A stretch of DNA of 64,000 nucleotides, from positions 5,395 through 69,394 of the forward strand of contig JANLTG010000043.1 in NCBI GenBank assembly GCA_031362805.1. Reading direction: 5' to 3'. Source of the stretch: a bacterium. GTDB taxonomy: Bacteria; Verrucomicrobiota; Verrucomicrobiia; Limisphaerales; RI-55. Below, one piece after another: positions 3,393 to 25,362 of the stretch. The stretch's first letter is position 1; every line of letters starts with the position of its first letter. Under the pieces are notes generated by a model, which saw nothing but the letters and a program-made list of their open reading frames with translations, did not search any database and was not told where the DNA came from. Made by a program: the position numbers and the translations under genes.

Positions 3393-3999
3393 TAGTACGA
3401 AAAGATGCAAGTCAGTTGACCGACGACCGACGACCGACGACCGACGACAGAGGACAGAGGACAGAGGACAGAGGACCGAAGACGGTAGACAGAGGACTGT
3501 CAAAAAAGGAAAGCAGCAGCACTTAACCGCCCGCCTTCATTCCTTGAACTTCGTCGCGGCACGCAGATGAACACAGATGGACGCAGATGAGCGGCCGAGG
3601 GAGTAATGGAGAGTTGGAGAGTTGGAATCGGACGACAGAGGACGGTGGACGGGTAAAGGAGAAAAGGAGCGGGGGAGCGGGGGAGCGGGGCGAAAGAGAC
3701 AGCCAACATTCAACGTTCAATGTTCAACTACCAAGGTGAGGGCGAAGGAGGTCGGAGTCTTTACGCGAATCAACACGAATTAACGCCAAGCGGAATCAGC
3801 CACGAAAGGGCGCAAAGGGCGCACAGTCCGTTTAACAGGAACTAACGGAGGAAGCGGAGGACGGAGGACCGAAGACGGTAGGCTGAAGACGGTCAAAAGC
3901 AGAAAACAGAAAGCGGAAATCAGTGGACCGACGACGGATGACCGAGGACAAGGAACGCTCAACGTCCAATGGCCAATGTTCAAAGCAGATACTGCGGCG
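3393..3999. repeat. 607-bp spacer made entirely of mosaic repeat modules
   Basis: Contains the GAC-phased heptad array, a TTAACC-CAGATG-type module, GGAGAGTTGGAGAGTTGG, GGAGCGGGGGAGCGGGGGAGCGGGG and AACRTTC heptads. It also contains TTTACGCGAAT..CACGAAT, GCCACGAAAGGGCGCAAAGGGCGCACAG, GTTTAACAGGAACTAACGGAGG and a CAAAAGC heptad run. All of these recur in other spacers. Confidence 0.9.
3418..3501. repeat. 12 consecutive in-register GAC-N4 heptads
   Basis: Counted base by base: (GACCGAC)x4 (GACAGAG)x4 GACCGAA GACGGTA GACAGAG GACTGTC. Confidence 0.95.
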
Positions 4000-4980: not shown

Positions 4981-6150
4981 TCAGTTTTGACCCCGCCCAT
5001 GATCCGGCTTGAGGGCGTCATAGAGGTACTCCCCGACGACCAGGCTGGTGGGCCCGTTGTAATGGCCGTCGGAGTCGAAATTCAACTTCTCCCCTTTGCT
5101 GAAACGCTCCTGCACGGGTGGATTCAGATCGATGAACTTTATTCCTTCGACCTGGCAGTGCTTTCGGACTACCTCCACAAAAAACTCCGTGTCAATCAGG
5201 CTGGGATCCAGTTTGCCTTTGGCCGCGAGGTCGTTTACGTGGAACACCCCGGCCGGTGGACAGTAAACGCCGATGGGAGTGGCGTTCAGACTGCGGACGA
5301 ACTGCTCAAGCTCCTGGAGATTCTTCAGAAAATCTGCGGTTTTCTCCGGTTTATGAATACGGTGACTGGAGGAAAAGCGTTCCACGTAGAATGACAGCGG
5401 GGCGTCCTCCCCTTTGAAATACCGGCGCTGCGTGTTTCGAATGCCGTCGCGCAGGAAGCAGTAACCAGCCGAAGTGTTCGCCAAGAATTTTCTGAGCAAG
5501 GGGATTCTCCAATTGCTGCCCTCGAAGAGGTCTCCCCGGCGCACAACGACGTCGGGATGGTTGTCGTCATACCCACCAATCAGCAATGGGTTGAAAACGA
5601 TGATCACCGCCTGCGGTGGGTTGGTGACAGACGCCGTGAAGCTCTTGAACAGGGCGGCTTGCTCCTGCAGATGGTGCCCAGCCACCGCGAGGTTAACCAC
5701 GTCAATATTATGGTCTTTAAGTTTTTCGGCGACGATGCCCACGAATGTTTGTTCGTAGTCGAGTCCGTTGCCAAAAGCGTCGGATGCTCCGAGGATCACG
5801 TAATATGGCCGCCCTCCGATAGATTGAGGGCCGGGTTTGGGTGATCGGAAGCCAAGATCGGAAGTATGGACGCTAAATTTTAGAGTAGGCCAAAATACTT
5901 CCTTGGTCACGCTTTTCTTCAAGACGTACGAAATACCACCTTGTTCGAAGTAGCCTTCCAAGTTCCCCATGTGGTAGCGACCAGTGGCTCGCAGGCCAAC
6001 CTCCAGCGTAATAATGCAGAATAGTAACGTGACAAGCACAACGCCGATTTTGGAGAGGCCTCGCCGAATAGTCTGCAGCGAACCTGACGAGCGGACGGTT
6101 GAACCATTCTCCGGAATCATGTTCTGTAAGGATGGGATAATTGGGCTCAT
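4981..6150 (-). CDS. Membrane-anchored SGNH/GDSL-like hydrolase or acyl-esterase (AlgX/AlgJ-role candidate)
   Basis: 389 aa with an N-terminal TM helix (VVLVTLLFCIITLEVGL). The block-I-like motif is YVILGASDAFGNG and the C-terminal DSDGHYN resembles the SGNH Asp/His block. Confidence 0.5.
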   Translation of the reverse strand: MSPIIPSLQNMIPENGSTVRSSGSLQTIRRGLSKIGVVLVTLLFCIITLEVGLRATGRYHMGNLEGYFEQGGISYVLKKSVTKEVFWPTLKFSVHTSDLGFRSPKPGPQSIGGRPYYVILGASDAFGNGLDYEQTFVGIVAEKLKDHNIDVVNLAVAGHHLQEQAALFKSFTASVTNPPQAVIIVFNPLLIGGYDDNHPDVVVRRGDLFEGSNWRIPLLRKFLANTSAGYCFLRDGIRNTQRRYFKGEDAPLSFYVERFSSSHRIHKPEKTADFLKNLQELEQFVRSLNATPIGVYCPPAGVFHVNDLAAKGKLDPSLIDTEFFVEVVRKHCQVEGIKFIDLNPPVQERFSKGEKLNFDSDGHYNGPTSLVVGEYLYDALKPDHGRGQN

Positions 6151-6712: not shown

Positions 6713-8365
6713 TCAGGTTGACTGCTCGCCGGCCCTTGCGGGAGGCTTGACCTTGCGAAGGCATGCGAAGATTGGTCGCGCCCGGTCCCGAAATTCACAA
6801 AACCCGCGCCTCGCTCCGGCCCAAAATGATGTGCGAGGCGCCCGAACCGTTTGTGGATCGATGCCCTCGGCAACAACGGATGTCAGTTCAATTTCCGTCC
6901 CGGGGTTTACTTTGATGGCTCCAGCCCGATACCCGTCAATTCGAACCCCATTCAACTGTCCATAGCGCAACTCAAGAGTTTCGTGTTCATCCGCCTCGAA
7001 CCAGGCACGGTGGACGATGAGATTGACGGCGTCCGACGGAATGCCAACTTGCACGCGACGCGAATACATCTTGACGTGCAGCGTGTCCCCGTCCTGATGG
7101 GTGCAGAAATTGGAACGAGCCATCGCCCGCATGTTCATCCAGCTCACATTCCCAACCGAGTTGATGCGATCGGCGAACTGCTTCATGATATCCAACCCGC
7201 CACTGACATCATCGTGATGGCCAACAAGAATGATAGGCTTTTGAAGCAGTGCGGCCAGATAGACATCCACTTCCCGTTCGTGGGCCAGCTTAAACCGGGG
7301 GATGACGGGGAATCCCGTTTCAAGATACTCGGCCGGGTTCAATCCGACGGTCTGTGGCCAGTCCCGATTCTGGTTGTAATGCATCAGCGACCAGCGGGAA
7401 ATACAGGCGGCCTCAAACCCGACCTGCAACATGGCGGCGGCCATCTCCTGGCTGCAGCCGCCATGGGGGGCCGCCATGATGCGGGAGATTTCCAAACCGG
7501 AACGTGCTTCCAGGCGGGCGATTCGGAGCAATGCCTGAGCCATGAGCCCCAGACGATGGCCGACAGGATAATCTTGAGCCAGTTCAGCGTAGGTGTGGTT
7601 ATTGCCATGGACGAGCAGTGAAAGCCGATCCTTATGGGCACGAAACAAGGCGGCAGTGGCGGGATGTACATACCAACCATCGAAGGGCACTGTCGCGAAC
7701 GACACATGGTAATTATGCGCGCGGGCATGCCGGGCCATTTCCTCGTACCGCACGCAGCCATAGGTCTTCCAATGCAGGTTGGGATCGTCGAACATCAAAC
7801 ATCCGCGCAGCGGCGGCCGCTTCCAGGGAGAAAGACCGCGCAGAAAATGCATGAGCGGCAACAAGTGCATGAAGTTGTCACGCTGAAGAAACTGGTACAG
7901 ATATTCGCCGCCGCCCAACGATGGGAGGTCCACGGCCAGAAGATCAATGGAGGCCTTCCCAACGACCCGATGAATCCATAGAATGTCTTCACCCTTGCGA
8001 GTGATCACTTCATCACCGCTTTTGGACTTCAGCTCACGGAGTTGCTTGATAGAGCGGTCACGAATGACACGGCCACGAAAACTCCGATCCAAACAAGGTA
8101 GCGCAGCCATCGAGAGGTCCGCCGTCTCCGACCTGACAGCAACGGGTGGCTGCCCGAGAAAGGCCAGGCAGGGAATTCCCGACCCAGCGATGCGCTCCGC
8201 CGCATCACGGCTCTGGCCGAAGAGCAAGGCTGCGGCACAATCGGATAGCTTGCCTTCGTCACGCGCCACGAACTGAAGCGTGTAAAGTTCACCCAAGGCA
8301 TCGAACAATCGCCGATGGCCGGACAATGCTTCAGAGGAAACCAGGGCAATTCTTACAGGCTTCAT
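6713..8365 (-). CDS. 550-aa protein of unknown function with a putative deacetylase/GH-like barrel core
   Basis: The ATG at 8365 (MKPVRIALVSSE...) overlaps the upstream stop (ATGA). The central segment CLMFDDPNLHWKTYGCVRYEEMARHARAHNYHVSFATVPFDGW...LLVHGNNHTYAEL resembles DUF2334/polysaccharide-deacetylase-like barrels. The N- and C-terminal domains are not recognised. Confidence 0.35.
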   Translation of the reverse strand: MKPVRIALVSSEALSGHRRLFDALGELYTLQFVARDEGKLSDCAAALLFGQSRDAAERIAGSGIPCLAFLGQPPVAVRSETADLSMAALPCLDRSFRGRVIRDRSIKQLRELKSKSGDEVITRKGEDILWIHRVVGKASIDLLAVDLPSLGGGEYLYQFLQRDNFMHLLPLMHFLRGLSPWKRPPLRGCLMFDDPNLHWKTYGCVRYEEMARHARAHNYHVSFATVPFDGWYVHPATAALFRAHKDRLSLLVHGNNHTYAELAQDYPVGHRLGLMAQALLRIARLEARSGLEISRIMAAPHGGCSQEMAAAMLQVGFEAACISRWSLMHYNQNRDWPQTVGLNPAEYLETGFPVIPRFKLAHEREVDVYLAALLQKPIILVGHHDDVSGGLDIMKQFADRINSVGNVSWMNMRAMARSNFCTHQDGDTLHVKMYSRRVQVGIPSDAVNLIVHRAWFEADEHETLELRYGQLNGVRIDGYRAGAIKVNPGTEIELTSVVAEGIDPQTVRAPRTSFWAGARRGFCEFRDRARPIFACLRKVKPPARAGEQST

Positions 8366-9165
8366 GGGGACGACACGACTTGTTTTTCCCCTGCGGCCCC
8401 GCAACTCGGATCGGTGCTCCGCACTTTTCGGGGGGTCAGACGACGGAAAAGGCGAAAGAGCGCGAAGACGGCGCACGGAATCGCGCAAGCGAGATAGAGA
8501 ACGGACTTTCCCCCGGGCCGGCCTGAATTCAGAACCCATTCGTAGAGATAGCCGAGGCTCTCGGTGACCATTTCCTTGGTGCGCTCACTGGATTGCCACC
8601 ATGCCTTGCCTTGCGTTGCATACGGACACCAGGCGACAATTCCGACGCGAGTTGCTGGACCGAAAACCTTCGAATACACCAAGCGAGTCCGCCGACAATG
8701 CGGTCCGCGGCTGAAGACGTTGATTGCCCCAACAGCGAAGCCCCGGAGTTCCAGCAACCGCTTCGCCGCCAGGGCGGATTCGAAGGTGCGCTGACTGTCA
8801 GATTCCAGACTTGGCGCCGAGAGTAACTTGTCGGCGGAGAGTCCAAGTACCAGCAATTCCTGCCTCGCGTTTTCCGCAAGGTTGAAGCGGTTCAATGCCC
8901 AAGAAGGTCCGCTCGGTCCGCCCGTTACTACAAGGTAATCGTAGCCCCCGCGACGGAACTCCTCCGCAGTTGCCGGCATTCCTTCCGAGTGAATCCACCC
9001 CTCCACGATCAGAACACTGGCTGGGACACGAGCCGTGACCGAAAGCCAAGATTCGCCCCACAAGACGCATGCCATCGCCAGGGTTACCGGTGAAACCAAG
9101 AGACAACTCCAACCGATCCAAGTCGGCCACCAGATCGTCCGCCGTTGAAAGAAAGCGCACTTCAC
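8362..9165 (-). CDS. DUF218 (YdcF/ElyC/SanA) family protein
   Basis: 267 aa with a GTG start and N-terminal TM helices. The core reads LIVEGWIHSEG...YDYLVVTGGP...ESALAAKRLLELRGFAVGAINVFSRGPHCRRTRLVY, matching the DUF218 pattern. Confidence 0.6.
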   Translation of the reverse strand: MKCAFFQRRTIWWPTWIGWSCLLVSPVTLAMACVLWGESWLSVTARVPASVLIVEGWIHSEGMPATAEEFRRGGYDYLVVTGGPSGPSWALNRFNLAENARQELLVLGLSADKLLSAPSLESDSQRTFESALAAKRLLELRGFAVGAINVFSRGPHCRRTRLVYSKVFGPATRVGIVAWCPYATQGKAWWQSSERTKEMVTESLGYLYEWVLNSGRPGGKSVLYLACAIPCAVFALFRLFRRLTPRKVRSTDPSCGAAGEKQVVSSP

Positions 9166-9190: not shown

Positions 9191-10846
9191 TCACGTGCCC
9201 CGGCGAGCGAGCTGCCGCTTCACCAGTTCGATCATCCCGGTCGCTTCCCGTCGGTAGAACGGAATTAGTGCAACCAGCGCCAGACCGGCCAGACTGCCGA
9301 CGGTTCCTCCCAGGCAGGTAAGGACGAAGGGATGAGCCTGCGGCAGGATCAGTTGAGGCAGGTACGCACCGACAAGGGTAACCACCCAAAATGGGGAGTG
9401 GCTTAAGCATCCCTTCCACAAGTCCGACCTAGTCACCGGACCGGATCGGCCGACGATGTGGTATTGGATTGGTAAACGGACCAGGAGTCCGAACACCGAA
9501 ACGGCCAGGGCCACACCCAATGGCCCGAAATACAAGCCGGCGACGAAGGAGCCCAGCGTAACCGTGGAAATGGCAATGCCCGAAATAAGAATATCCCGGT
9601 TGCGACGCTGAGTTGTCAGCAGCCACATGGAAGCACCCGCAATCGGATAATAGAGGGCCGTGAGCGACAACGCGGCGAAGACCGGCACCACCGCCGTCCA
9701 CTTAGAGCCCAAGGCCAACAGGACGAGCGGCCGAGACAACCCGAGAAAGAGACCGGCGATCGGAAAACTGACGAGAGCCATCGCATTGTAGATTTGTAGA
9801 AAGTGGCTTCGATAGCGCTCCGGTTGGTCCTGAAGGCGAGACAATACGGGAACAAACACCTTGTCGAAGGGAACCAGGAATTGGTCCAGCGGCCGCATTA
9901 TCAGGGCCATTGCCCGGGAATAAACCCCGACCGCGTCCGCGCCAAAGTAACGGCCTAGCAGCAGGCTATCAGCGTTACTGGTGATCCGCCTTAGAAGCGT
10001 CGCGAAGGTGATGCTCGCTCCAAAGCGAAGCATGGAACGAGTGCCGCTCCCGGATTTAGGCAGTTGCGGGCGCCAACCTGAGGCGATCCAAGCCATTGTC
10101 AATTCGGTCAGTGCCATGCCCAGTTGCGCGCCCACGAGAGACCAGTAACCGAAGTTGTAGGCGGCCATAACCATGCCGACAACCAGACAAGCCGTCATGG
10201 ACCCCAGATCAATCAGCGCCAAGGCCGTGAAACGCATTTGCCGATTCAGCAAGGCCAGATGTTGAACCGCTGCGCCGCCGGCAAAAAGGGTCAACGAGAG
10301 GGCAATCGTGATGCCCAGCAACCGCGAATCGTGATAATACCACGCCATCAAGGGTGCCAGCGCAATGCCGATCGAGGTGCAGCCGAGTCCGACAGCGAGG
10401 TTAGCCCAGAAAAGGTTGGAAACCTGGGCATGCGTAATGGTCTGCTGCTGCACGGTGGCGGTGGAGAGCCCGGCCTCTCGGAAAAGGTGCAAGATCTGGG
10501 TCAGCGCCAAACCCATGGCGACCAGCCCAAAGTCTGCGGGGTTGAGCATCCGTGCAAGGACAACGGTCAGGATCATGTACAATCCCATCCGTGCAACCTG
10601 CGAGAACGTCGTGACTACTCCACCGGAGAACGCGCGGCTTCCCAAGTTATGAATTAAGTGGTCCGTCCGGAAATGTTGTTCAGCCTCCCGGTTTTCCACA
10701 GCAGGAGACCCGGCCAAGTTTGGCAGCGCGCCTCCCTTTCCGACACCTGTGGGCTGAGGGTTGGAAGCGATAACGATGGGAACAGTCACGTCAAGAAATG
10801 GATTACGAAGGCGCGCAAGCCTACTTCTCCACCGACACGGAGGCAT
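9191..10846 (-). CDS. Wzx-type polysaccharide flippase (MOP/PST family)
   Basis: 551 aa with about 12-14 TM helices. ARMGLYMILTVVLARMLNPADFGLVAMGLALTQILHLFREAGLSTATVQ is typical of polysaccharide biosynthesis (Polysacc_synt) proteins. Confidence 0.8.
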   Translation of the reverse strand: MPPCRWRSRLARLRNPFLDVTVPIVIASNPQPTGVGKGGALPNLAGSPAVENREAEQHFRTDHLIHNLGSRAFSGGVVTTFSQVARMGLYMILTVVLARMLNPADFGLVAMGLALTQILHLFREAGLSTATVQQQTITHAQVSNLFWANLAVGLGCTSIGIALAPLMAWYYHDSRLLGITIALSLTLFAGGAAVQHLALLNRQMRFTALALIDLGSMTACLVVGMVMAAYNFGYWSLVGAQLGMALTELTMAWIASGWRPQLPKSGSGTRSMLRFGASITFATLLRRITSNADSLLLGRYFGADAVGVYSRAMALIMRPLDQFLVPFDKVFVPVLSRLQDQPERYRSHFLQIYNAMALVSFPIAGLFLGLSRPLVLLALGSKWTAVVPVFAALSLTALYYPIAGASMWLLTTQRRNRDILISGIAISTVTLGSFVAGLYFGPLGVALAVSVFGLLVRLPIQYHIVGRSGPVTRSDLWKGCLSHSPFWVVTLVGAYLPQLILPQAHPFVLTCLGGTVGSLAGLALVALIPFYRREATGMIELVKRQLARRGT

Positions 10847-11585
10847 GCAACGCTTCGCTGACTGGCAAAATTCTCGATCCGGATTTCATTGCCTGTCGCA
10901 CGACCTCTTCAAACAACCGCGGAGTGCAGCCAAAGCGGCTTGGCTGATCGCAGACGTCATGGGTGGCGAAGACAAGCCAGCCACAGGCTTGGGTATTCTG
11001 TTCAATGACTTGCTCGATCAGCGCGGGCGTGCTTTTCTCAATGAAGAATGCTCGAAGGTTGTTGAGATCCATCGTTCCAACGTTGAAGGTCTGTCCGCCG
11101 CCGCGGCAGCCGGCGAAGTACTTCGACGCTCGTCGTTTATTCTGCGGACGAGGGACATCGATGGGATACGACATGGTCTTGAACTCAGCGGTCGGCAGTA
11201 ACCGTTGCAACGATTCCCGGTTCTGAACGAGAGACCGGTCGAAGTCCTGAGAGGGGGTGTTCCACGCATGGTCGTGGCCAAAAGTATGGCAACCCAATTC
11301 GTGACCGGCAGATAAAAGTGGCTGGAAGTCGGCCTGTGAGAAGATCGGACCAACTGGTGAGTTGGCGCGATCCATCAATCCCAAGGCGGCATAAAAGGTG
11401 CCCCGGAGGTTGTGCCTTTGGAGAATCCCTCCCCCAACCTGTAGGGCGGTTCGTGGAAAATCGTCAAAACTGAATGAAATTAGTGGTCGGCTATTACGCA
11501 TTGGGACCATGCGCCGCACGGACAGTTGTGAAAGACTCAACCGAAATCGATCCCACGCTTTCGCCCAAATGCTGTTGACAGTCAT
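10821..11585 (-). CDS. Polysaccharide deacetylase (NodB homology, CE4)
   Basis: Shows SFSFDDFPRTAL (the DD metal/catalytic motif) and GHELGCHTFGHDH (the His-His motif). 254 aa. Confidence 0.8.
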   Translation of the reverse strand: MTVNSIWAKAWDRFRLSLSQLSVRRMVPMRNSRPLISFSFDDFPRTALQVGGGILQRHNLRGTFYAALGLMDRANSPVGPIFSQADFQPLLSAGHELGCHTFGHDHAWNTPSQDFDRSLVQNRESLQRLLPTAEFKTMSYPIDVPRPQNKRRASKYFAGCRGGGQTFNVGTMDLNNLRAFFIEKSTPALIEQVIEQNTQACGWLVFATHDVCDQPSRFGCTPRLFEEVVRQAMKSGSRILPVSEALHASVSVEK

Positions 11586-14137: not shown

Positions 14138-15961
14138 TTAGGGCTGCTCGATGAGAGTTCTCTGGATCAATTCACTGGTGAGCAGAAGGTGGATTTCCGA
14201 CGTATAATTGCCGGTGCCGGTGACGTGCGCGTTCACCATTCTGGCAATGTTCCGGCCGTCCAGATACGGCCGCGAGAGCGTAAGCGGATCCAGCAACATT
14301 TCCTTCACAAAAGGAGCGAGTTGATGGCGATACCAATAGCGATAGTGGTAATACTTGTGCCGGCCGAGGAAGAGTTTTTCCAGATGCAGCGGGGCAAGGA
14401 TTCGGTCCACCTTTGCCAGCCATTGCGGCATGCCGTAATCGTAGGCGTATTCGGCCTTGAAGGTAAATTCCTCGAATTGTTCCGAAATTCTGCCTAGCAG
14501 CCCACGCCGCCCCAAAGGACCGCGATCCGTGGGAAAGGAAGCCAAAGCCGGATTCCCATCAGAAATAAGCCGCTCGGCGATGTGCCGGTTCAACCTGATC
14601 CCCTCGGGGGCCTGATAAGCGACTGCCACCAACTCGTTGTCGAGGTACGGAGAACGAACGGTGATCTGGGACTGCTCCAGAGCGAATCGCGCAAAATGGT
14701 GCCAGGGAACCTGCTTGAACGCGATGAAGGTTAGAGCGTCACACTGCCTTTCACCCTTATACAGCATCCGTGCGTTGTCCAGATGGGGTGTGAAATCGTT
14801 CGCAAACAGAGAACGGTCGAGCGATTTGGGCTTGAAAGCCACAAGTTGTCTCAGGATCTCGCTGCCATAGTTACCCGTCATCCGAATGGGGGCGATCTCC
14901 CTGCTTGCGATCCGGTTGGCAAATAGTGAGGCGGCACCGCTGGCGTCCATGCAACCGTCGGTGATGTAAACACATTGACTCGCGAGCGTGGGAAACTCCG
15001 AAAAGAAACTTCCACCCACAGTGAGCGTTCGATGCGACTGCCTGCAGACCGACGCGACACGGCGGGCAATCTTTGCATCCAAACATTCGCGAAAAACGCC
15101 CCGATGGCTATAGCAAGGAAGCTTGGAGCGTTCGAAGCGAGTCCATGCCATGATGATCCGCCCATCGAGACCGCCGGTAAGCGACATCGCGATCTGATCC
15201 GCGTTGCGGAAGTAGCGAGGCAGGATGCGGACAAAGGTTGCCTTAAGCTTTTCGTAGTAGTCGTCGGTCGAAAGTTTCTCCTGAGATTCCCAGGTTCCTT
15301 TGGAGAAATAGGTCTCCTTTTTAACCGGGCATCGGGGTTTGAAGGTCCAGATCGAACCCGGAGGCACCAAAGAGATGCCAGCGAAGAGCGTCCGGTTTTG
15401 CAGCACACAGCCCATGGTGAGCAACTCGCCCAGCTGCGGCATTTCGAGGCGCCGAAGGTGCGGGAGGATTTTCAGCAAAGCCTTGGCTTCGGACGCGAAG
15501 AAGAAGCCATCCTCATTTTCATGGAAATAAATTCGTCCCAATCCGTAACGATCATTGAACAAGACGACTTTGTTTTCACGAAGATCAATAAGTAGACCAC
15601 TGAAGGCGCCGTTCAATTTCGCCCAAAAACCGTCCCCTTGCTCTTCATAAAGATGCACCAAGTAACTGGCATTCGTGCTTTCAAAACTGTGTCCACCCGC
15701 CTTGAGGCGCTGGACTTCCGCGGGGTCGCCAAATTCCTCACCGGAAAAGATCAGGCACACGTCACGGGTTTCGTTCCAGCTGGGCAGGCAATCCGCAAAG
15801 GAGCCCGGCTGGCTAACCCAGGCAGCGGCGACATCCAACCCCTTTTCGACGAGCGTCCCAGAAGCGTAGGACGGCTCGTGCAACATGGAATTGCGCATCT
15901 CGCCGAGAGCCCCGCGGCGGCTGTCAGTGTTTGGGGAGATGAATCCGGCTATTCCAGGCAT
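14138..15961 (-). CDS. Asparagine synthase (AsnB)-family amidotransferase homolog lacking the N-terminal Cys nucleophile
   Basis: Track ORF is 14138..16054, and its 5' extension reads through the tRNA. The ATG at 15961 gives MPGIAGFISPN..., where AsnB enzymes have MCGI. An Ntn-like domain is followed by an AsnB synthetase-like domain (SLTGGLDGR, corresponding to the SGGLDS PP-loop). Confidence 0.75.
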   Translation of the reverse strand: MPGIAGFISPNTDSRRGALGEMRNSMLHEPSYASGTLVEKGLDVAAAWVSQPGSFADCLPSWNETRDVCLIFSGEEFGDPAEVQRLKAGGHSFESTNASYLVHLYEEQGDGFWAKLNGAFSGLLIDLRENKVVLFNDRYGLGRIYFHENEDGFFFASEAKALLKILPHLRRLEMPQLGELLTMGCVLQNRTLFAGISLVPPGSIWTFKPRCPVKKETYFSKGTWESQEKLSTDDYYEKLKATFVRILPRYFRNADQIAMSLTGGLDGRIIMAWTRFERSKLPCYSHRGVFRECLDAKIARRVASVCRQSHRTLTVGGSFFSEFPTLASQCVYITDGCMDASGAASLFANRIASREIAPIRMTGNYGSEILRQLVAFKPKSLDRSLFANDFTPHLDNARMLYKGERQCDALTFIAFKQVPWHHFARFALEQSQITVRSPYLDNELVAVAYQAPEGIRLNRHIAERLISDGNPALASFPTDRGPLGRRGLLGRISEQFEEFTFKAEYAYDYGMPQWLAKVDRILAPLHLEKLFLGRHKYYHYRYWYRHQLAPFVKEMLLDPLTLSRPYLDGRNIARMVNAHVTGTGNYTSEIHLLLTSELIQRTLIEQP

Positions 15962-15990
15962 GACGAATCGGGATGGAAACGTATGTGAAG

Positions 15991-16069
15991 TGGTGGAGCT
16001 GGGAAGGGCTTGAACCTCCATCGTCGCGCTGTTGCCAACGCGCCGCTCTGCCAATTGAGCTACAGCCCC
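15991..16069 (-). tRNA. tRNA-Ala(GGC)-like gene with non-canonical anticodon arm and T arm
   Basis: Minus-strand sequence: GGGGCTGTAGCTCAATTGGCAGAGCGGCGCGTTGGCAACAGCGCGACGATGGAGGTTCAAGCCCTTCCCAGCTCCACCA. It has a 7-bp acceptor stem with G3:U70, a canonical D arm, the loop TT-GGC-AA, TTCAAGC in the T loop, and an encoded ACCA end. At 79 nt it is 3 nt longer than canonical and needs a bulged A or an 8-nt anticodon loop, plus one extra C at the T-arm/acceptor junction. Folded by hand only. Confidence 0.6.
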
Positions 16070-16968
16070 TGAGATTGCAGACGCGACCGGTACCTATACA
16101 AAAACCAGCGAGCACGCAAGTTCGCATAAACGTCCTGCCAGTTGCCGGGAACGAGTTCCGTGAGCTTTCGGTGCAGCCCGAGCCCGAGCGCCAGTCGGCC
16201 GCGCCAGTTCAGGGGAACGTAGTACCGGGGAATTTCCACCAACTCAAACCCGTGATGTTTCTTGAAATCGCCCAAACTGCGTCGGCTCCAAACGCCATAC
16301 TGGAGCTGCACGATGCCCCGCTCGGCGCAGATTTCGATGGCCTTGGCGAGCAGCGCGTTGGTGGGAGACTTATCGCGATGAGCGACCAGCGAAATGATCT
16401 GCATAATGCTGGCAGATTTTCTATTCGGATGCAGGATCATCTTAATGAAACCGATAACTCCCCTTTCAAAAATGGCACTGATAAACAGGCTCCGATCCAT
16501 AAAGCTAGAATGGGCCCTCTTCAAGGTTTCGAAGTCTTTGCCGTAATGTTTTGACGGCCTGCCTTGAATCAGCGGCGACTCGTTGTAGATGGCATGAATG
16601 CCCCGGGCGAGTTCATCGCTGAATTCAACCGGTTGAATCGTGACCCCTTTCTTGCCCGCCTTTCGGACCACATTCCTCGTCTTATCGTTGACCTGCCGTT
16701 TCCACCAGTTTTCGTAGGTATCGATTCTCAGCACGGCGATTTTCTCCGGCAGGGATGGATAGCCGTATTCCCGGTCGGGCGTGGCTATTTGCTGCAGGAA
16801 CGAGAAGACGTCGACTCCAGAACCTTTCAAGTCTGATAGAAACATCCGGGGTTCTTCGACGTATTCGTGGTGCTCCGATCGCAATCGGGCAACGCGGGGA
16901 AAAATGCCCGAAACGGAGACGTCCTTGCCTTCGATGTTAATCCGGTTGCTTGGGGGTGCCAGAGTCAT
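16060..16968 (-). CDS. GNAT-fold FemAB/CelD-like (Acetyltransf_6-like) transferase, PEP-CTERM-locus type
   Basis: The ATG at 16968 gives MTLAPPSNRINIEGK.... The pattern KTRNVVRKAGKKGVTIQPVEF...IYNESP...GVIGFIKM...RDKSPTNALLAKAIEICAERGIVQLQYG...SLGDFKKHHGFELVEIPRYYVPL matches FemAB-related/CelD-like proteins of EPS loci. Its last 3 codons and stop lie inside the tRNA 5' end. Confidence 0.55.
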   Translation of the reverse strand: MTLAPPSNRINIEGKDVSVSGIFPRVARLRSEHHEYVEEPRMFLSDLKGSGVDVFSFLQQIATPDREYGYPSLPEKIAVLRIDTYENWWKRQVNDKTRNVVRKAGKKGVTIQPVEFSDELARGIHAIYNESPLIQGRPSKHYGKDFETLKRAHSSFMDRSLFISAIFERGVIGFIKMILHPNRKSASIMQIISLVAHRDKSPTNALLAKAIEICAERGIVQLQYGVWSRRSLGDFKKHHGFELVEIPRYYVPLNWRGRLALGLGLHRKLTELVPGNWQDVYANLRARWFLYRYRSRLQSQGL

Positions 16969-17008
16969 TGTCTTCAAAGCGAATGCGGGCCTTACCGTCA
17001 GACGGCGC

Positions 17009-18334
17009 TTACCAACAAATGCCGTAATACTCGCAACCGTTCCACTGGTTGGAGTCCACGATTCTCACCAGGTCGATCACCAGCTTTCCGGGCGTGAGGA
17101 ACTCCAAGGCCTGCCTGAAAGACTCCTCCTTGTGGCTAATCACAATCACGTCACTTTGCTCAACGAGGTCCCGGGCTGAAGAGCACATCAGGTTCGAGAT
17201 ATGGGGGATTTCCTTTTCGATATACTCCTTGTTCGCGCCGATCAACCGCGCGAGCGACACGTGCTGGTCATAGATCTTGATGGTGAACCCCTTGCCCAGC
17301 ATGGTTTCGATCACCTCAACAATCGGGCTGGAACGCAAATCGTCGGTGCCACCCTTGAAACTCAGCCCCAGGAAGCCGAGCGACCGGCCCTTGCAGCTCA
17401 ACAGCTTATTCACGACCCGCCCGATCTGGCGGCTGTTGCTTTCGAGCACGGCGTTGAGCATGGGAACGTCGAGGTCCATAGCCCGCGCTTCGTGCGTGAT
17501 CGCCTTCAGGTCTTTCGGGAGGCAGGAGCCGCCAAACGCGAAACCGGGTTTCAAGTAGTAGGGCGAGAGGTTGAGCTTGGTGTCCTGACAGAAAATGTTC
17601 ATGACGGCGTGGCTATCCACATTCGCTTCCTTGCAAATATTGCCAATTTCATTGGCGAAAGTGACTTTGACCGCATGGAAGCAGTTGTCAGCGTACTTGA
17701 CCATTTCGGCAACTCTCAGCTCGGTGTGGATCAGCGGCCCTGGAATCTTCGTATAAAGCGCGGCGAGCGCCTTCCCGGACGCTTCGTCATACTGGCCGAT
17801 GACGGTTTTGGGCGGATTGTAGAAGTCGTAAATCGAAGTGCCTTCGCGCAAGAATTCCGGATGCATACACAGGCCGAAATCCCGGCCCACCTTCCTGCCG
17901 GACGATTGCTCGAGCGTCGGAATGACGATGCTGTCCATCGTGCCCGGCATGACCGTGCTGCGAATGACGACCGTGAATCGACCCGGATGCGAGGCGAGGG
18001 CGGTGCCGATCTGTTCACAAACACGCTGCACGTAGCGGAGGTCGATGCTGCCGTTTGACCGGCTCGGGGTACCAACGCACACCAACGCAAGTTCCGAGTC
18101 GTGAATCGCCGCGGTCCAGTCGCTGGTAGCCACGAATGAGCCAGCGCCAACGACTTTGGCCATGAGAGTGTCGATATCCTTTTCGATGATCGGGCTCTTG
18201 CCGCTATTGATGAGATCGACTTTAACTTGATTGGGCTCGACGCCCAGAACCTTGTGTCCCAGCTCGGCAAAGCAAGCGCCGGTCACACACCCCACATAAC
18301 CCATGCCGAAGATACAGACTCGCATACTTGTCAT
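17009..18334 (-). CDS. Nucleotide-sugar 6-dehydrogenase (GDP-mannose dehydrogenase AlgD-like / UDP-glucose dehydrogenase family)
   Basis: 441 aa. The N-terminal Rossmann segment MRVCIFGMGYVGCVTGACFAELGHKVLGVEPNQVKVDLINSGKSPIIEKDI looks closer to AlgD than to Ugd by eye. The catalytic region reads GFAFGGSCLPKD. Confidence 0.8.
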   Translation of the reverse strand: MTSMRVCIFGMGYVGCVTGACFAELGHKVLGVEPNQVKVDLINSGKSPIIEKDIDTLMAKVVGAGSFVATSDWTAAIHDSELALVCVGTPSRSNGSIDLRYVQRVCEQIGTALASHPGRFTVVIRSTVMPGTMDSIVIPTLEQSSGRKVGRDFGLCMHPEFLREGTSIYDFYNPPKTVIGQYDEASGKALAALYTKIPGPLIHTELRVAEMVKYADNCFHAVKVTFANEIGNICKEANVDSHAVMNIFCQDTKLNLSPYYLKPGFAFGGSCLPKDLKAITHEARAMDLDVPMLNAVLESNSRQIGRVVNKLLSCKGRSLGFLGLSFKGGTDDLRSSPIVEVIETMLGKGFTIKIYDQHVSLARLIGANKEYIEKEIPHISNLMCSSARDLVEQSDVIVISHKEESFRQALEFLTPGKLVIDLVRIVDSNQWNGCEYYGICW

Positions 18335-19509: not shown

Positions 19510-20715
19510 TCAGGATGCAACCGCCGCAACTTTGGCCGACACGGCACTCATCTGTGAATGCTGATGCTGATCGAGCAGCGCCAAGGCGGCGAACATGGTG
19601 GCCTGGCCCCAATGCAGCGTTGGCGTCTTGTTGGTGATCAGAGGGTACTTGCGATAATAAAAGTAACCAGCTTTGTCCTGCATGTGTTTGATGGTCCATT
19701 CCGCCACGTTAACGGCGGTGGGAACGCTGGCGGGATGCAGATCGCGCAAGTTGACGAGCGTCTGGATGGCTTGCGAAGCGCATTGGATATCAATCGGCAG
19801 CGTTTTGTAATCGTAGTAACGCGGAGTGCCGTCGGGCAGAAAGAAGGTATGAACGAAATATTCATAGCCTCGCTTGAGCGCGGGCTCGTACCTGGTGGCA
19901 CCGGTCGCGCGGATAAAAATGGCAAGCGCTTCGAGCACATAGCCCGTATGGAAGGAATCGATCCACTTCCATTTCTCGCCCACCCCATAGTACCAGGCAC
20001 CCGCTTCCGTCTGATGATGCAACGTGTATTGAATCGCGCGCTCGGCCAACTCGCGATAGCGTGGGTTGGGCGAAAAGGAGTTTACACGCGCCAACAGGCT
20101 CGCACCGATCATGCTCGAATTATGCACCAGGATGTTTGCGTTGGGATAATACTGAAGGAGGATACCTTCCGGAAACTCAAGCCATCCCAGTTCGTCGAGA
20201 ATGAAGTCACAGGCGCTCCGGGCGACTTCCAGGTAGCTCCGGTCGTCCAGCAGCTCGTAGGCATCAAGAAACGCGTGAGCAATCAATCCGGTCCAGACGA
20301 TGGTGGGTGTGCCCTTGGAAATGTTACCGCCGCGCGATTGATAATCGAAGTGGTTGCCCCAGGAGAAACCCTTGAATTGCGGGCAGCGGTTCTCGATCAG
20401 CCATTGCAGGCAAAACTTCGCCTTCTTCAGGAATAACGGATCACCGTGCGCCTGGTAACGGCGCAAGTAGCCCTGGGCGAAAAAGCCCATGCCCTTGGTG
20501 CTCATGCCGGGCTTGATACCCAACAAGGGCCGAAGGTTCAGGGGAAACCGCCGCACGCCCTGCTGCCAGGCGATTTTCAGCAGGGGGTGACCGAGAGTGA
20601 CGAAGGGGGCCAAGGGCGACGACAAGCCATCAAAGGTGTCGTAAGCCTTCCAATCGGCCGCCTCGACCCAACGATCAAGCCGGGTCAACGAATCGTGTAT
20701 ATTCTGGTGCTGCAT
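19510..20715 (-). CDS. Hypothetical protein, probable (alpha/alpha)6-barrel polysaccharide-modifying enzyme
   Basis: The ATG at 20715 gives MQHQNIHDSL.... W/Y/H-rich repeating helix-pair motifs are present (GFSWGNHFDYQSRGG..., WKWIDSFHTGYVLEAL, HWGQATMFAALA). The family was not recognised. Confidence 0.3.
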   Translation of the reverse strand: MQHQNIHDSLTRLDRWVEAADWKAYDTFDGLSSPLAPFVTLGHPLLKIAWQQGVRRFPLNLRPLLGIKPGMSTKGMGFFAQGYLRRYQAHGDPLFLKKAKFCLQWLIENRCPQFKGFSWGNHFDYQSRGGNISKGTPTIVWTGLIAHAFLDAYELLDDRSYLEVARSACDFILDELGWLEFPEGILLQYYPNANILVHNSSMIGASLLARVNSFSPNPRYRELAERAIQYTLHHQTEAGAWYYGVGEKWKWIDSFHTGYVLEALAIFIRATGATRYEPALKRGYEYFVHTFFLPDGTPRYYDYKTLPIDIQCASQAIQTLVNLRDLHPASVPTAVNVAEWTIKHMQDKAGYFYYRKYPLITNKTPTLHWGQATMFAALALLDQHQHSQMSAVSAKVAAVAS

Positions 20716-20734
20716 GTAGCGGAATGCCTTACAA

Positions 20735-21970
20735 TCACAGGGAAGCGTAGGCGGCCAACAGGTTCTTGCTGACCACCGACCACTGAAGCTCCTTTTCGAC
20801 ACGCTCACGGCCAAAGCGACCCATCTGCTCGCGGCGAATAGGGTCATCCATCAGCGCGGCGGTGGCCCCGGCAAAGGCCAGTTCGTCGTTGCAGGGGACA
20901 TATACCGCAGCGTCCTGCGCAGAGTAACGGGTCTCCCTGAGATCGAAGGTCACGATTGGCTTGCCGCAAGCCATGTATTCCATGACCTTGATCCACGTGG
21001 AGACGTCATTGAGCGGGCTCGACGGATCGGGGTCCATGCAAATGTCCGCCGCGGCCAAGTTCGCCTGAAGGTCCTCGTCGGAAATCCAGCCGGTCAGCTC
21101 GACGAATTTCTCCAACTTCAAAGTCCGGGTCAAGGCGCGCAAGTCCTCGAGCGAATCGCCACTGCCCATGATGACGCAGTAAAAATCTTCGCGCTTCAGA
21201 TCGTAGACGAGGTGTTTTAGCGAGCGGATGAGGTAATCCACGCCGTCCTGGGGATTCAGGCTGCCAATATAGACGAGAATGGTCTTGCCCAAGGCGCGCA
21301 GCCGCGGGGTCGGGGTGGCAATCTGCATGCGCTTCTGGTTGGGACCGTTCCGGACCACAAAAATGTGCTCGGGCTGGCGATGACCGCGCTGGATCTGGAT
21401 CGCCTTGTAAGACTCGTTGGTCGCGATGAGCACGTTGGCGAGCTTCAGATTGAACCATTCGATCCACTGCAACACGGTCGCGACGAAGTCGTGCGTCGCA
21501 CCATAGCGGGAGCGGTACAACTCCGGGCAGAGGTCGTGATGATCGAAGATGTATTTTTTCCCGAGCAACCGCCAAGGCAGGGCAGCGGCCCAAAGGGTAT
21601 CCGGAGGATTATGGGCATGAATCACGTCAAAGCCGTGCTTGCAGGCGACATAGATACTCATCAAAAAGCACGCGCTGGAGAAGTAAACGTATTCGCTGAC
21701 ATAGCCGACCAGCGACCGAAGCTTGAGGCTTAGGCGCTGGAAAAGCGTCGGGTTATCCGTCGGCGTCTTCTGAAAGAGTTCGAGGCGCGGCAACCGATAG
21801 ACCTGGACGCCCTTGACCACCTCAGAGCGGCTCTGGCCGGGCTTCCGCATGCCAATGACGGTCACGGAATACCCGGCTTCCGTCAGGGCATCGGCTTCGT
21901 TCTTGACCCGCGTATCGTTGGGATACGCGTTTTCGACGAACATCAGGACTCTACGGGCGGAAGCGTTCAT
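20735..21970 (-). CDS. Family 4 glycosyltransferase (group 1)
   Basis: 411 aa. RVLMFVENAYPNDTRVKNEADAL... is followed by the C-terminal EX7E-type region (ICMDPDPSSPLNDVSTWIKVMEYMACGKPIVTFDL). Confidence 0.8.
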   Translation of the reverse strand: MNASARRVLMFVENAYPNDTRVKNEADALTEAGYSVTVIGMRKPGQSRSEVVKGVQVYRLPRLELFQKTPTDNPTLFQRLSLKLRSLVGYVSEYVYFSSACFLMSIYVACKHGFDVIHAHNPPDTLWAAALPWRLLGKKYIFDHHDLCPELYRSRYGATHDFVATVLQWIEWFNLKLANVLIATNESYKAIQIQRGHRQPEHIFVVRNGPNQKRMQIATPTPRLRALGKTILVYIGSLNPQDGVDYLIRSLKHLVYDLKREDFYCVIMGSGDSLEDLRALTRTLKLEKFVELTGWISDEDLQANLAAADICMDPDPSSPLNDVSTWIKVMEYMACGKPIVTFDLRETRYSAQDAAVYVPCNDELAFAGATAALMDDPIRREQMGRFGRERVEKELQWSVVSKNLLAAYASL

Positions 21971-24075: not shown

Positions 24076-25362
24076 CTAGGCTTTGTGGAGCTGGCCGGGG
24101 TTGGTGGGGAGGCCGTGCATCGCGTTGCGGGTGTCGACGATGAGCTTAGCCCACTCAGCGAGCTGGGTGTAGTTCACGTTGGCGTGCGCGGTCGAAATCA
24201 GGACGAGATCATAGCTGGAGATCGTGGCCTGGTTCCAGTCAATGGACTTAACGCCCGCCCACTGCGGATGCTCGCGCGTGGGCCGAATGACGGGCACATA
24301 GGGATCGTGATAGGCAACATCGGCACCGCGTTGCTTGAGCAACTCGAGCAAGTGGTAGCTCGGCGATTCGCGATCGTCATCGACGTTCGCCTTGTACGAA
24401 AGGCCAAGGATCAAGATGCGACTGCCGTTCACGGGCTTCCGGACGCCGTTCAACGTCTCGGCCACGCGATTGATCACATGCTCGGGCATGTGGGTGTTGA
24501 TCTCGCCGGCGAGCTCGATGAAACGGGTGTTCTGGCCATACTCGCGCGCTTTCCAGGTCAGGTAAAAGGGATCGATGGGGATGCAGTGTCCGCCGAGGCC
24601 CGGTCCGGGATAGAAGGCCATGTAACCGAAGGGTTTGGTCTTGGCGGCGTTGATGACTTCCCAAATATCGATGCCCATGGCGGCGTAGACGACCTTGAGC
24701 TCGTTGACGAGGGCGATGTTGACGCCACGGAAGATGTTCTCAAGCAGCTTGGTGGATTCGGCGGCGCGGCAGGACGAGACGGGGACAATGGTCTTAATGG
24801 CGAGGGAATAGAGCGCCTTCGCCTTTTCCAAGCAGGCGGGAGTGTAGCCGCCGACGACCTTGGGGATGATGGCGACCTTGCTGTCGGGATTGCCGGGGTC
24901 TTCGCGTTCGGGCGAAAAGGCGAGATGGAAATCAGTGCCGGCTTTCAGGCTCGAGCCGGATTCGAGCACGGCCCGGAGATCTTCATCGGTGGTGCCGGGG
25001 TAGGTGGTGGACTCAAGAACAACCAGAATGCCCTGGTGCAAATGCGGGGCAATGCTGCGGCCGGTATCGAGGATGTAAGAGATGTCGGGTTCGCGGTTTT
25101 TGTTGAGCGGCGTGGGGACGCAGATGATGACGGCATCGACTTCCTTGACGCGGGCGAAATCGGCGGAGGCGGTGAAGCGACCGGCGGAGACCTGTTCCTG
25201 CATGGACTCGCTCGAGATGTGCTTGATGTAGGACTGGGCAGTGTTGCAGGCGGTGACTTTTTTCTGATCGATGTCGAGGCCGAGGACCTTGGCGCCGGAG
25301 CGGGCGAACTGGAGGCAGAGCGGGAGACCGACGTAACCGAGGCCGACGATGGCGATTTTCAT
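24076..25362 (-). CDS. UDP-N-acetyl-hexosamine 6-dehydrogenase (WbpA/WecC/TviB family)
   Basis: 428 aa. MKIAIVGLGYVGLPLCLQFARSGAKVLGLDIDQKKV... and ...GPGLGGHCIPIDPFYL are typical of the WbpA/TviB branch of nucleotide-sugar dehydrogenases. Confidence 0.8.
   Translation of the reverse strand: MKIAIVGLGYVGLPLCLQFARSGAKVLGLDIDQKKVTACNTAQSYIKHISSESMQEQVSAGRFTASADFARVKEVDAVIICVPTPLNKNREPDISYILDTGRSIAPHLHQGILVVLESTTYPGTTDEDLRAVLESGSSLKAGTDFHLAFSPEREDPGNPDSKVAIIPKVVGGYTPACLEKAKALYSLAIKTIVPVSSCRAAESTKLLENIFRGVNIALVNELKVVYAAMGIDIWEVINAAKTKPFGYMAFYPGPGLGGHCIPIDPFYLTWKAREYGQNTRFIELAGEINTHMPEHVINRVAETLNGVRKPVNGSRILILGLSYKANVDDDRESPSYHLLELLKQRGADVAYHDPYVPVIRPTREHPQWAGVKSIDWNQATISSYDLVLISTAHANVNYTQLAEWAKLIVDTRNAMHGLPTNPGQLHKA

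Follow-up and report, generated by a model that had tools for sequence, protein, structure and literature searches.

Alanyl-tRNA synthetase (AlaRS) recognizes the G3:U70 base pair and the discriminator nucleotide A73 of its substrates and ignores the anticodon. Dedicated non-ribosomal tRNAs are, to our knowledge, known essentially from staphylococcal peptidoglycan synthesis, and these RNAs still resemble decoding tRNAs. In Staphylococcus aureus, non-proteinogenic tRNA-Gly species are kept for the Fem enzymes FemX, FemA, and FemB; they are extra tRNAs that are charged by the housekeeping synthetase and reserved for Fem-type transferases acting on an envelope polymer (PMC9976931). Both AlaRS and the Fem enzyme FemX are active on minihelices that lack an anticodon, and FemX reads the pairs G1-C72 and G2-C71 (PMC2175331, PMC2655667). 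In vivo, tmRNA serves as an anticodon-less substrate of AlaRS (PMC3985003). Here we describe a tRNA-Ala-like RNA gene (TLS) that is embedded between genes for a Fem-like transferase and for a homolog of the asparagine synthetase AsnB. The three genes lie on the minus strand of a 64,000-nucleotide stretch of verrucomicrobial DNA (contig JANLTG010000043.1, positions 5,395 to 69,394), which we refer to as the window. The TLS retains the AlaRS identity elements, and its anticodon loop is replaced by a closed hairpin.

ARAGORN reports the TLS as "tRNA-???" with a four-base anticodon (ggca), and it is the sole tRNA-type gene in the 64 kb. The Rfam tRNA model (RF00005) matches it at 45 bits, compared with a gathering score of 29, and the E-value for the window is 2e-6. 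Like an elongator tRNA-Ala, the RNA has a cloverleaf with a 7-bp acceptor stem, D and T arms, G3:U70, and A73. Direct reading of the sequence places G1 at 16069, the pair of G3 with U70 at 16067 and 15997, and A73 at 15994, and the acceptor stem (GGGGCUG/CAGCUCC) is followed by an encoded CCA end (15993-15991). The D arm is canonical (G18 G19), as are the T loop UUCAAGC and the G53-C61 pair, and the T stem is nearly normal with one bulged U at 16005/16004. In contrast, the RNA lacks the anticodon loop of 7 nt in which U33 and a purine at position 37 flank an NGC anticodon. The loop region of the window copy still spells UUGGCAA, which is the loop of tRNA-Ala(GGC). However, U32, U33, and G34 of this former loop are paired with an inserted CAG trinucleotide, which creates a 7-bp helix (C28-G45 to G34-C39) that is capped by the GNRA tetraloop GCAA (16035-16032). 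The minimum free energy (MFE) fold (-33.1 kcal/mol) and the centroid fold are both cloverleafs with this GCAA-capped arm. Because the anticodon loop is missing, the TLS is not a member of the elongator tRNA-Ala class. The gene is tightly packed between its neighbors: The TAG stop codon of the Fem-like open reading frame (ORF) at 16062-16060 coincides with TLS positions 8-10, and 29 nt separate the TLS from the start codon of the AsnB-like gene.

To place this RNA in a comparative context, 160 loci (80 genomic, 80 metagenomic) were fetched through an alignment of Fem-like protein homologs, and a covariance model, R1, was built from ten TLS copies. The model scores the window TLS at 80.9 bits and finds 27 further elements at 37-92 bits, mostly in verrucomicrobial loci. 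The resulting 28 occurrences comprise 25 distinct sequences, window included. ARAGORN also reports an aberrant "tRNA-???" directly after the Fem-like gene in several of the verrucomicrobial loci. A cloverleaf is the fold of 23 of the 25 distinct sequences. Standard pairs occupy 94.4% of cells in the R1 alignment and only 42-52% when the partners are slid by one to three columns, a comparison that somewhat favors structure because the alignment was fitted to R1. Changes on both sides are seen at seven pairs, and compensatory changes occur in three helices. The anticodon-stem pairs covary freely (at 31:39, for example, 12 sequences have A-U and 10 have G-C), the T-stem pair 52:62 is variable, and acceptor pair 6:67 appears as six pair types. 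The remainder of the acceptor end is nearly fixed: G2-C71 and A73 are present in all 25 distinct sequences and G1-C72 and G3:U70 in 24, and G4-C69, C5-G68, and G7-C66 are likewise invariant, with exceptions only in two degenerate copies (L012 and L081). This pattern of a fixed acceptor stem amid covarying pairs at 6:67 and in the anticodon and T stems suggests that the acceptor end alone is read in a sequence-specific manner.

The absence of a 7-nt anticodon loop is shared by every distinct sequence (0/25 carry one). Tetraloops cap the arm in 17 cases (GCAA in 11, UUCG in 4, GUUA and CUUG in the other two), and the remaining caps have 6 nt in six sequences (e.g., GUUAAA), 5 nt in one, and 3 nt in one, the degenerate L012. 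The D and T loops are conserved. The wobble pair U32.G41 of the window copy is C32-G41 in its closest relative, L081, a change that supports the extended anticodon-arm helix. L081 (2106-2180), whose Fem-like protein is 69% identical to that of the window, has the same GCAA-capped arm and a partly deleted T arm, which may mean that the element is decaying in this lineage or that the assembly is in error.

These data bear on an initial annotation of the window. Its gene order and coordinates, the fusion of the Fem-like gene at its stop codon to a tRNA-like gene, and the 29-nt gap before the AsnB homolog all hold in the sequence and in the ARAGORN call. The AlaRS identity pair that it had recognized is present and conserved, and the proposal that this RNA is something other than the canonical, ribosome-used tRNA-Ala(GGC) is borne out by the window copy and its 24 distinct homologs. 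It had further described both the T arm and the anticodon arm as disrupted and had taken the T-arm damage to insulate the RNA from translation. The T arm has only the 1-nt bulge in its stem, and the insulating feature would be the loss of the anticodon loop instead. The anticodon arm is indeed abnormal, but it is remodeled rather than broken. Conservation of the aberrant arms had been put forward as a test, and it holds for the anticodon arm in all 25 sequences but not for the T-stem bulge between positions 63 and 64, which is limited to the group of the window, L001, L002, L004, and L109; other copies have a regular stem.

The ancestry of the TLS can be judged from a control search. When the 25-nt 5' half of the TLS was compared with viral contigs, 64 of 77 matches proved to be ordinary tRNA-Ala genes with normal anticodons. 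The TLS thus clearly descends from tRNA-Ala, and, as these matches are called normally, the odd loops are not an artifact of the tool. No specific family for this RNA exists in Rfam 15, in which the generic tRNA model is the only match. Likewise, the full-text literature searched, whose coverage leaves out subscription journals, yielded no account of a tRNA-Ala-like gene without an anticodon in polysaccharide clusters. A separate observation concerns two viral contigs (L202, 1900-2028, and L226, 6407-6511), where tRNA-Ala-like genes on which ARAGORN is silent have intact acceptor, D, and T arms and carry inserts of 72 nt and 46 nt, respectively, at the site of the anticodon arm. Introns could account for these inserts; alternatively, the genes could encode anticodon-less mimics of another kind.

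The adjacency described in the initial annotation recurs in relatives. Of 27 loci, 25 have the TLS directly 3' of the Fem-like gene, frequently in overlap with the stop codon of that gene. The AsnB-like gene follows the TLS at a distance of 17-310 nt, again in 25 of 27 loci, and its product begins with MPGI (MSGI in L008). Two loci are rearranged, with the orders TLS, AsnB-like, YdjC deacetylase, Fem-like (L099) and Fem-like, GT4, UGDH, TLS, AsnB-like (L104), and the TLS is retained in the cluster in both. The pair of protein genes is more widespread than the RNA. In most of the 160 loci the Fem-like gene is followed on the same strand, within a few hundred bases, by the AsnB-like gene, and the pair is seen in Acidobacteriota, Nitrospirota, Rokubacteria, Geomonas, and Methylomicrobium. 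By average-linkage clustering, the TLS is limited to one subgroup of Fem-like proteins (mostly Verrucomicrobiota) and is patchy inside it. A search of 13 TLS-less loci for hidden or degenerate copies (cmsearch, filters off) returned nothing above 11.4 bits; L007 is among the subgroup members in which no copy appears even then. Because most loci with the gene pair are without it, the TLS is an accessory to a widespread two-enzyme module.

The Fem-like protein is 302 amino acids (aa) long when read from the ATG at 16968, and the longest ORF (305 aa) begins with a TTG at 16977. A database protein (P0001) is 100% identical over the 302 aa, and the family numbers about 1,800 homologs, from phyla that include Verrucomicrobiota, Acidobacteriota, and Nitrospirota. 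Sequence signals linking this family to known proteins are weak. The window protein has no match in Pfam or NCBIfam at E ≤ 1e-3, and a profile search of PDB sequences found only generic GNATs. Among 21 family members, matches below the cutoffs were obtained to PF13480 in 18 (best E-value 3.5e-6), to PF02388 (FemAB) in 17 (best 1.2e-3), and to TIGR03019 (pepcterm_femAB) in all 21 (best 1.2e-6). Assignment of the window protein to PF02388, PF09924, or PF13480 was rejected because the thresholds are not reached. Membership in TIGR03019 was rejected as well: The score of the protein, 16 bits, is far below the 260 required, and no exosortase model matches any of the ORFs of at least 200 aa scanned between 2.1 and 42 kb of the window.

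Structural comparison gives a clearer picture. An AlphaFold 2 model built from the family alignment (pLDDT 89.6, pTM 0.85) was compared with the PDB by Foldseek, and the top matches are all aminoacyl-tRNA-dependent enzymes with TM-scores of 0.52-0.62. The best of these is Sba18/Sbb17 in structures with streptothrisamine (PDB 9wqy, 9wqx, and 9wqw; E-value 1e-10, TM-score 0.59-0.62), and FemX (0.55-0.57) and the C-terminal domains of MprF and related aminoacyl-phosphatidylglycerol synthases (aaPGS; about 0.52-0.55) are also matched. Tandem GNATs that use acetyl-CoA, such as VipF and Eis, score lower (0.36-0.42). By this confident model, the Fem-like protein has the double GNAT-type fold of FemX, the aaPGS C-terminal domains, and Sba18/Sbb17. 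In addition, the acetyl-CoA-binding motif A of GNATs (Q/R-x-x-G-x-G/A) is replaced by an invariant, glycine-free HRDK(A/S)PTN (HRDKAPTN), whose position at β4-α3, the motif A site, we infer from GNAT topology. The family alignment also contains an invariant basic helix, DKTRNxVRKAxKKG. A tRNA-binding helix has been proposed for FemX (PMC12945691), of which this helix is probably the counterpart.

The AsnB homolog begins with MPGIAGF and thus has no Cys2, and its PP-loop, SLTGGLDG, is kept. Alignment to 7ylz and 1ct9 shows that the nucleophilic cysteine is replaced by proline and Asn74 by serine. Pro2 is present in 115 of 118 homologs (MPGI[VAT]G), the rest having one Ser, one Thr, and one Cys, and most of the homologs carry the PP-loop SLTGGLD[TSG]. 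The window protein scores 94.6 bits with TIGR03108 (cutoff 816.9) and 94.2 bits with the glutamine-hydrolyzing AsnB family TIGR01536 (cutoff 267.1); membership in either was rejected given these scores and the missing nucleophile. Because the cysteine is replaced and the PP-loop is kept, the protein is predicted to be an adenylating enzyme for which normal use of glutamine is impossible. The N-terminal proline (window 15959-15953, codons 2-3 of the gene) sits on an Ntn-type domain, and its conservation on this fold suggests a retained, different role rather than simple decay.

For the two proteins, the earlier assignments fared unevenly. The loss of the glutaminase nucleophile from an adenylating AsnB homolog had been recognized correctly. 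Description of the transferase as FemAB/CelD-like is supported at the level of fold, but not by the weak sequence signals, and the expectation that it would be of Fem type rather than an acyl-CoA-dependent acetyltransferase agrees with both the TM-scores and the replaced CoA motif. Its placement among the FemAB/amidotransferase proteins of PEP-CTERM loci fails on the scores and finds no exosortase among the ORFs scanned.

The best explanation for these observations is that AlaRS charges the non-decoding TLS and that the alanine passes to a sugar acceptor by way of the Fem-like enzyme. We assign this reading a probability of roughly 55%. The three genes would form an aminoacyl-decoration module within an operon for a Wzx/Wzy-type polysaccharide. 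The TLS would be co-transcribed with its neighbors and excised by the normal tRNA-processing enzymes. Charging by AlaRS is expected since this synthetase reads the acceptor end alone (G3:U70 and A73). Ala-TLS would be barred from ribosomal decoding because a closed tetraloop hairpin takes the place of the anticodon loop, creating an alanine pool that is reserved for the cluster. The Fem/MprF-type transferase would then pass the alanine to a sugar precursor, in which a free amine is the most likely nucleophile. For the AsnB homolog without Cys2, we envisage ATP-dependent adenylation of a carboxylate, probably of a uronic acid supplied by the adjacent dehydrogenases, and formation of an amide. 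Free sugar amines and carboxylates are plausible acceptors because the cluster contains a deacetylase and a route resembling WbpA/B/E. Lineages without the TLS would use ordinary tRNA-Ala as the donor. The complete scheme, in which an RNA with a GNRA or UNCG loop for an anticodon loop is charged by AlaRS and donates alanine only to Fem-type polysaccharide aminoacylation, with an added amide-forming step by the N-terminal-proline AsnB homolog, is more tentative, and we place it slightly short of an even chance.

Several characteristics of the system weigh against alanine transfer from a dedicated carrier. The Fem-like label leans on a modeled fold, with TM-scores of about 0.55-0.62 and 10-16% identity. 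The TLS is dispensable, as most gene-pair loci, including all acidobacterial and some verrucomicrobial ones (L007), have none within 5 kb. Where it is present, its linkage to the AsnB-like gene and its linkage to the Fem-like gene are equally tight, with two exceptions for each. The damaged T arm of the 37-bit copy in the closest relative, L081, suggests that the constraint on the TLS can lapse. Moreover, most of the acceptor stem is invariant, and the invariance of G3:U70 could therefore partly reflect recent common descent. A final difficulty arises from the overlap of the two genes. The Fem-like stop codon is inside the TLS in the window and in L001-L005, L075, L085, L086, L088, and L096 (in the anticodon stem for L003 and L005), and it is upstream of the TLS in L006, L008, L009, L012, and L023. 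With the stop inside, cleavage by RNase P at G1 would leave a non-stop mRNA, and thus any one transcript may allow either release of the TLS or translation of the transferase, but not both.

Some of these characteristics are expected if the TLS is a cleavage signal for RNase P and RNase Z or an expression control element, comparable to mascRNA or to the tRNA punctuation of mitochondria, that separates the Fem-like and AsnB-like messages and sets their relative stability or translation. The RNA is within an operon, and a scan of the minus strand nearby, limited to sigma-70 consensus sites, found no promoter-like or terminator-like site of its own. It precedes the AsnB-like start directly in 25 of 27 loci, the rearranged ones included, it can be dispensed with in most lineages, and its anticodon arm is free to vary while the acceptor/T/D elbow that both nucleases recognize is kept. 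However, neither nuclease needs G3:U70, A73, or a fixed G1-G5, and 24 of the 25 sequences retain the weak G.U pair even as other stems covary. Furthermore, CCA is encoded in several copies, and the aminoacyl-tRNA-transferase fold of the neighboring enzyme would be left unexplained. We consider a processing signal unlikely as the sole function, and it could coexist with a carrier role. The equal linkage to the AsnB-like gene, with which the TLS also stays in L099 and L104, invites a different proposal, in which the AsnB-like enzyme is the user of the RNA instead of or besides the Fem-like enzyme. An adenylated uronic-acid carboxylate might be coupled to the α-amine of TLS-bound alanine, with the Fem-like enzyme then transferring the product, or, in the manner of other PP-loop ATPases, the enzyme might have the RNA as its substrate. 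Loss of the nucleophile in 117 of 118 homologs that keep the PP-loop implies an amine donor other than glutamine. Known Cys-less AsnB homologs such as lasso-peptide cyclases and β-lactam synthetase join a substrate amine to an adenylated carboxylate, and the protein has weak NCBIfam matches to lasso and macrolactam cyclases. Yet the proline is equally present in many TLS-less loci, the TLS loops vary and offer no conserved base as a modification target, and we know of no tRNA-dependent enzyme in the AsnB family. This proposal seems to us distinctly improbable.

Two other explanations are difficult to reconcile with the comparative data. The TLS might be a pseudogene of tRNA-Ala(GGC) in decay, or it might resemble a tRNA by chance and have no function, as could be surmised from the UUGGCAA sequence and T-stem bulge of the window copy and from the visibly degenerate copies L081 and L012. 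However, the position of the RNA in the operon is shared by 27 loci, and their Fem-like proteins are just 46-69% identical to that of the window, a divergence that rules out near-identical copies of one recent transfer. Neutral decay is also not expected to produce compensatory changes in three helices or the recurrent, hyperstable GNRA and UNCG tetraloops. This explanation is largely refuted by these data, and we consider it very improbable. Equally, the four-base anticodon reported by ARAGORN and an alternative fold of the window copy with a 4-bp stem and a 10-nt loop could indicate a translating tRNA-Ala with an expanded anticodon loop, such as a quadruplet-decoding or frameshift-suppressor tRNA. 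The extended helix is instead both the MFE and the centroid fold and is backed by the U.G to C-G change in L081, and the closed loops of 4-6 nt in homologs (GCAA, UUCG, GUUAAA) present no U33-NNN-R37. We give translation by this RNA the least credence of all. Alanine transfer from a charged, non-decoding TLS is the reading that we prefer.

The module resides in a minus-strand, operon-like run of polysaccharide genes in a cluster of Wzx/Wzy-like/Wzc-like/Bac_transf type. This run includes a Wzx flippase, an HfsH-like deacetylase, a Wzy_C protein, a GT2 glycosyltransferase, the AsnB homolog, the tRNA-like gene, the 302/305-aa protein, a nucleoside diphosphate (NDP)-sugar 6-dehydrogenase, and GT4 glycosyltransferases. 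Farther along the cluster are a second NDP-sugar dehydrogenase, a Wzc-like kinase, a DegT aminotransferase, a UDP-GlcNAc-3-dehydrogenase-like enzyme, and a Bac_transf initiating transferase. Coordinates are given in Table 1.

Table 1. Positions in the window of the module and of associated polysaccharide genes.
Feature	Position	Strand	Basis
Fem/MprF-type (GNAT-fold) transferase-like gene	16060..16968	-	ORF; 302 aa from ATG 16968
tRNA-Ala-like RNA gene (TLS), 79 nt	15991..16069	-	ARAGORN, Rfam tRNA, MFE fold, covariance model R1
Remodeled anticodon arm of TLS	16025..16042	-	Sequence and MFE folds
AsnB-family adenylating enzyme homolog, 607 aa (ATG at 15961)	14138..15961	-	Pfam GATase_7 and Asn_synthase
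Nucleotide-sugar (UDP-glucose-type) 6-dehydrogenase, directly upstream, same operon	17009..18334	-	TIGR03026 at 416 bits
Polysaccharide deacetylase, HfsH-like	10821..11585	-	NF050820 at 138 bits, PF01522
NDP-sugar dehydrogenase (UDP-ManNAc/GlcNAc-DH-like)	24076-25362	-	
DegT-family aminotransferase	28974-30107	-	
UDP-GlcNAc 3-dehydrogenase-like enzyme	31709-32893	-	
DltB/AlgI-type MBOAT at cluster edge	2106-3503	-	TIGR04091 at 233 bits, cutoff 375 not reached

The two NDP-sugar dehydrogenases, the DegT aminotransferase, the 3-dehydrogenase, and the deacetylase could supply the amine and carboxylate acceptors. The 6-dehydrogenase directly upstream, a type that also neighbors the module in L104 and L161, would be the source of a uronic-acid carboxylate, and the HfsH-like deacetylase is a possible source of a free sugar amine. 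We also observed that the second dehydrogenase, the aminotransferase, and the 3-dehydrogenase together resemble the WbpA/B/E route to 2,3-diamino-2,3-dideoxy-uronic acids, compounds that carry both a free amine and a carboxylate. In L099, the gene between the AsnB-like and Fem-like genes (2250-2978) encodes a YdjC-family carbohydrate deacetylase, which echoes the PF01522 deacetylase of the window; its placement is compatible with deacetylation followed by aminoacylation. A protein of about 415-445 aa with faint matches to GH76, GH88, and pectate-lyase-like families is encoded in the window (19510-20847, minus strand), in L099 (3949-5190), and in L161 (1-459), and it accompanies the module in the window and L099. 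The MBOAT gene at the cluster edge adjoins ORFs without a family match (4981-6150 and 6713-8539) and may belong to a second, extracytoplasmic acylation system acting on the same polymer.

If the proposed mechanism is correct, the TLS would be the first example in nature of a tRNA that lacks an anticodon and is devoted to non-ribosomal aminoacyl transfer, and the pathway would be the first in which an exopolysaccharide receives amino acids in a tRNA-dependent manner. An RNA that has abandoned decoding and has kept its synthetase identity set would show a tRNA serving purely as a carrier of an activated amino acid, and the anticodon independence of AlaRS would gain physiological relevance beyond tmRNA. 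The hypothesis offers a concrete, testable function for a large protein family, so far "hypothetical," of about 1,800 homologs and predicts that abundant soil and freshwater bacteria make amino-acid-decorated exopolysaccharides. By analogy, it may have bearing on the long-unexplained FemAB-like/amidotransferase pair of XrtA/PEP-CTERM loci. The TLS could also provide synthetic biology with a natural, orthogonal scaffold for carrying alanine.

Comparison with described systems helps to define what is distinctive about this locus. The TLS resembles mascRNA, derived from MALAT1, in its tRNA shape, its non-functional anticodon loop, and its predicted excision from a longer transcript by RNase P and RNase Z. 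However, mascRNA is eukaryotic, is not aminoacylated, has no synthetase identity set, and serves to form the 3' end of its host RNA, whereas the TLS keeps the identity set. The tRNA-like domain of tmRNA, which is charged by AlaRS via G3:U70 and has no anticodon, is a precedent for alanylation of a mimic in vivo. At 350 nt, with an mRNA module, SmpB, and a function in ribosome rescue, tmRNA is otherwise quite different from the TLS, which is a full cloverleaf of 73-79 nt with a stable hairpin and no coding part. Among protein families, the nearest curated ones are the TIGR03019 and TIGR03108 pair of XrtA/PEP-CTERM loci, and the combination of Fem-like, AsnB-like, and deacetylase genes in an exopolysaccharide locus is analogous. 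The window proteins nonetheless fall far under the cutoffs of this pair (16 versus 260 bits and 94.6 versus 817 bits), and the scanned ORFs include no exosortase. We are aware of no tRNA-like gene described in XrtA loci and of no function established for their FemAB/amidotransferase pair.

Closer parallels are found among the transferases. Sba18 and Sbb17 (about 285 aa) are near the window protein in size, and their PDB titles describe aminoacyl-tRNA-dependent peptide synthases with streptothrisamine. They belong to actinomycete secondary-metabolite pathways of the streptothricin type, whereas the window protein is encoded in a polysaccharide operon. We take streptothrisamine to be an amino sugar, which would make Sba18/Sbb17 Fem-like enzymes that act on a sugar amine; they presumably use housekeeping tRNA, and we know of no dedicated tRNA-like gene for them. 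FemX of Weissella viridescens (PDB 1NE9, 4II9; PMC2175331, PMC2655667) uses an alanine donor whose acceptor stem is that of tRNA-Ala, as the TLS would provide, and the two pairs that it reads, G1-C72 and G2-C71, are present in 24 and 25 of the 25 TLS sequences. The window protein is similar in modeled fold, but it is about 11-14% identical to FemX and below the FemAB Pfam threshold, and FemX uses ordinary tRNA-Ala with UDP-MurNAc-pentapeptide as its acceptor.

By analogy, the module would work most like the arrangement of non-proteinogenic tRNA-Gly and Fem enzymes in staphylococci. For the TLS we likewise propose an extra tRNA to which the housekeeping synthetase attaches an amino acid for the sole use of a Fem-type transferase, and in both cases changes in the tRNA body would keep the RNA out of translation. 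In the S. aureus tRNA-Gly species, the anticodon loop is normal and escape from EF-Tu depends on altered T-stem pairs (49:65 and 51:63), whereas the anticodon loop of the TLS is deleted or closed. Their genes are not beside the fem genes, whereas the TLS is embedded in the operon and overlaps the stop codon of the transferase gene. They serve peptidoglycan with glycine, whereas the TLS would serve a Wzx/Wzy polysaccharide, probably with alanine. The module therefore differs from the staphylococcal arrangement in four ways: insulation through loss of the anticodon, an operon-embedded RNA gene, the probable amino acid, and the polysaccharide target.

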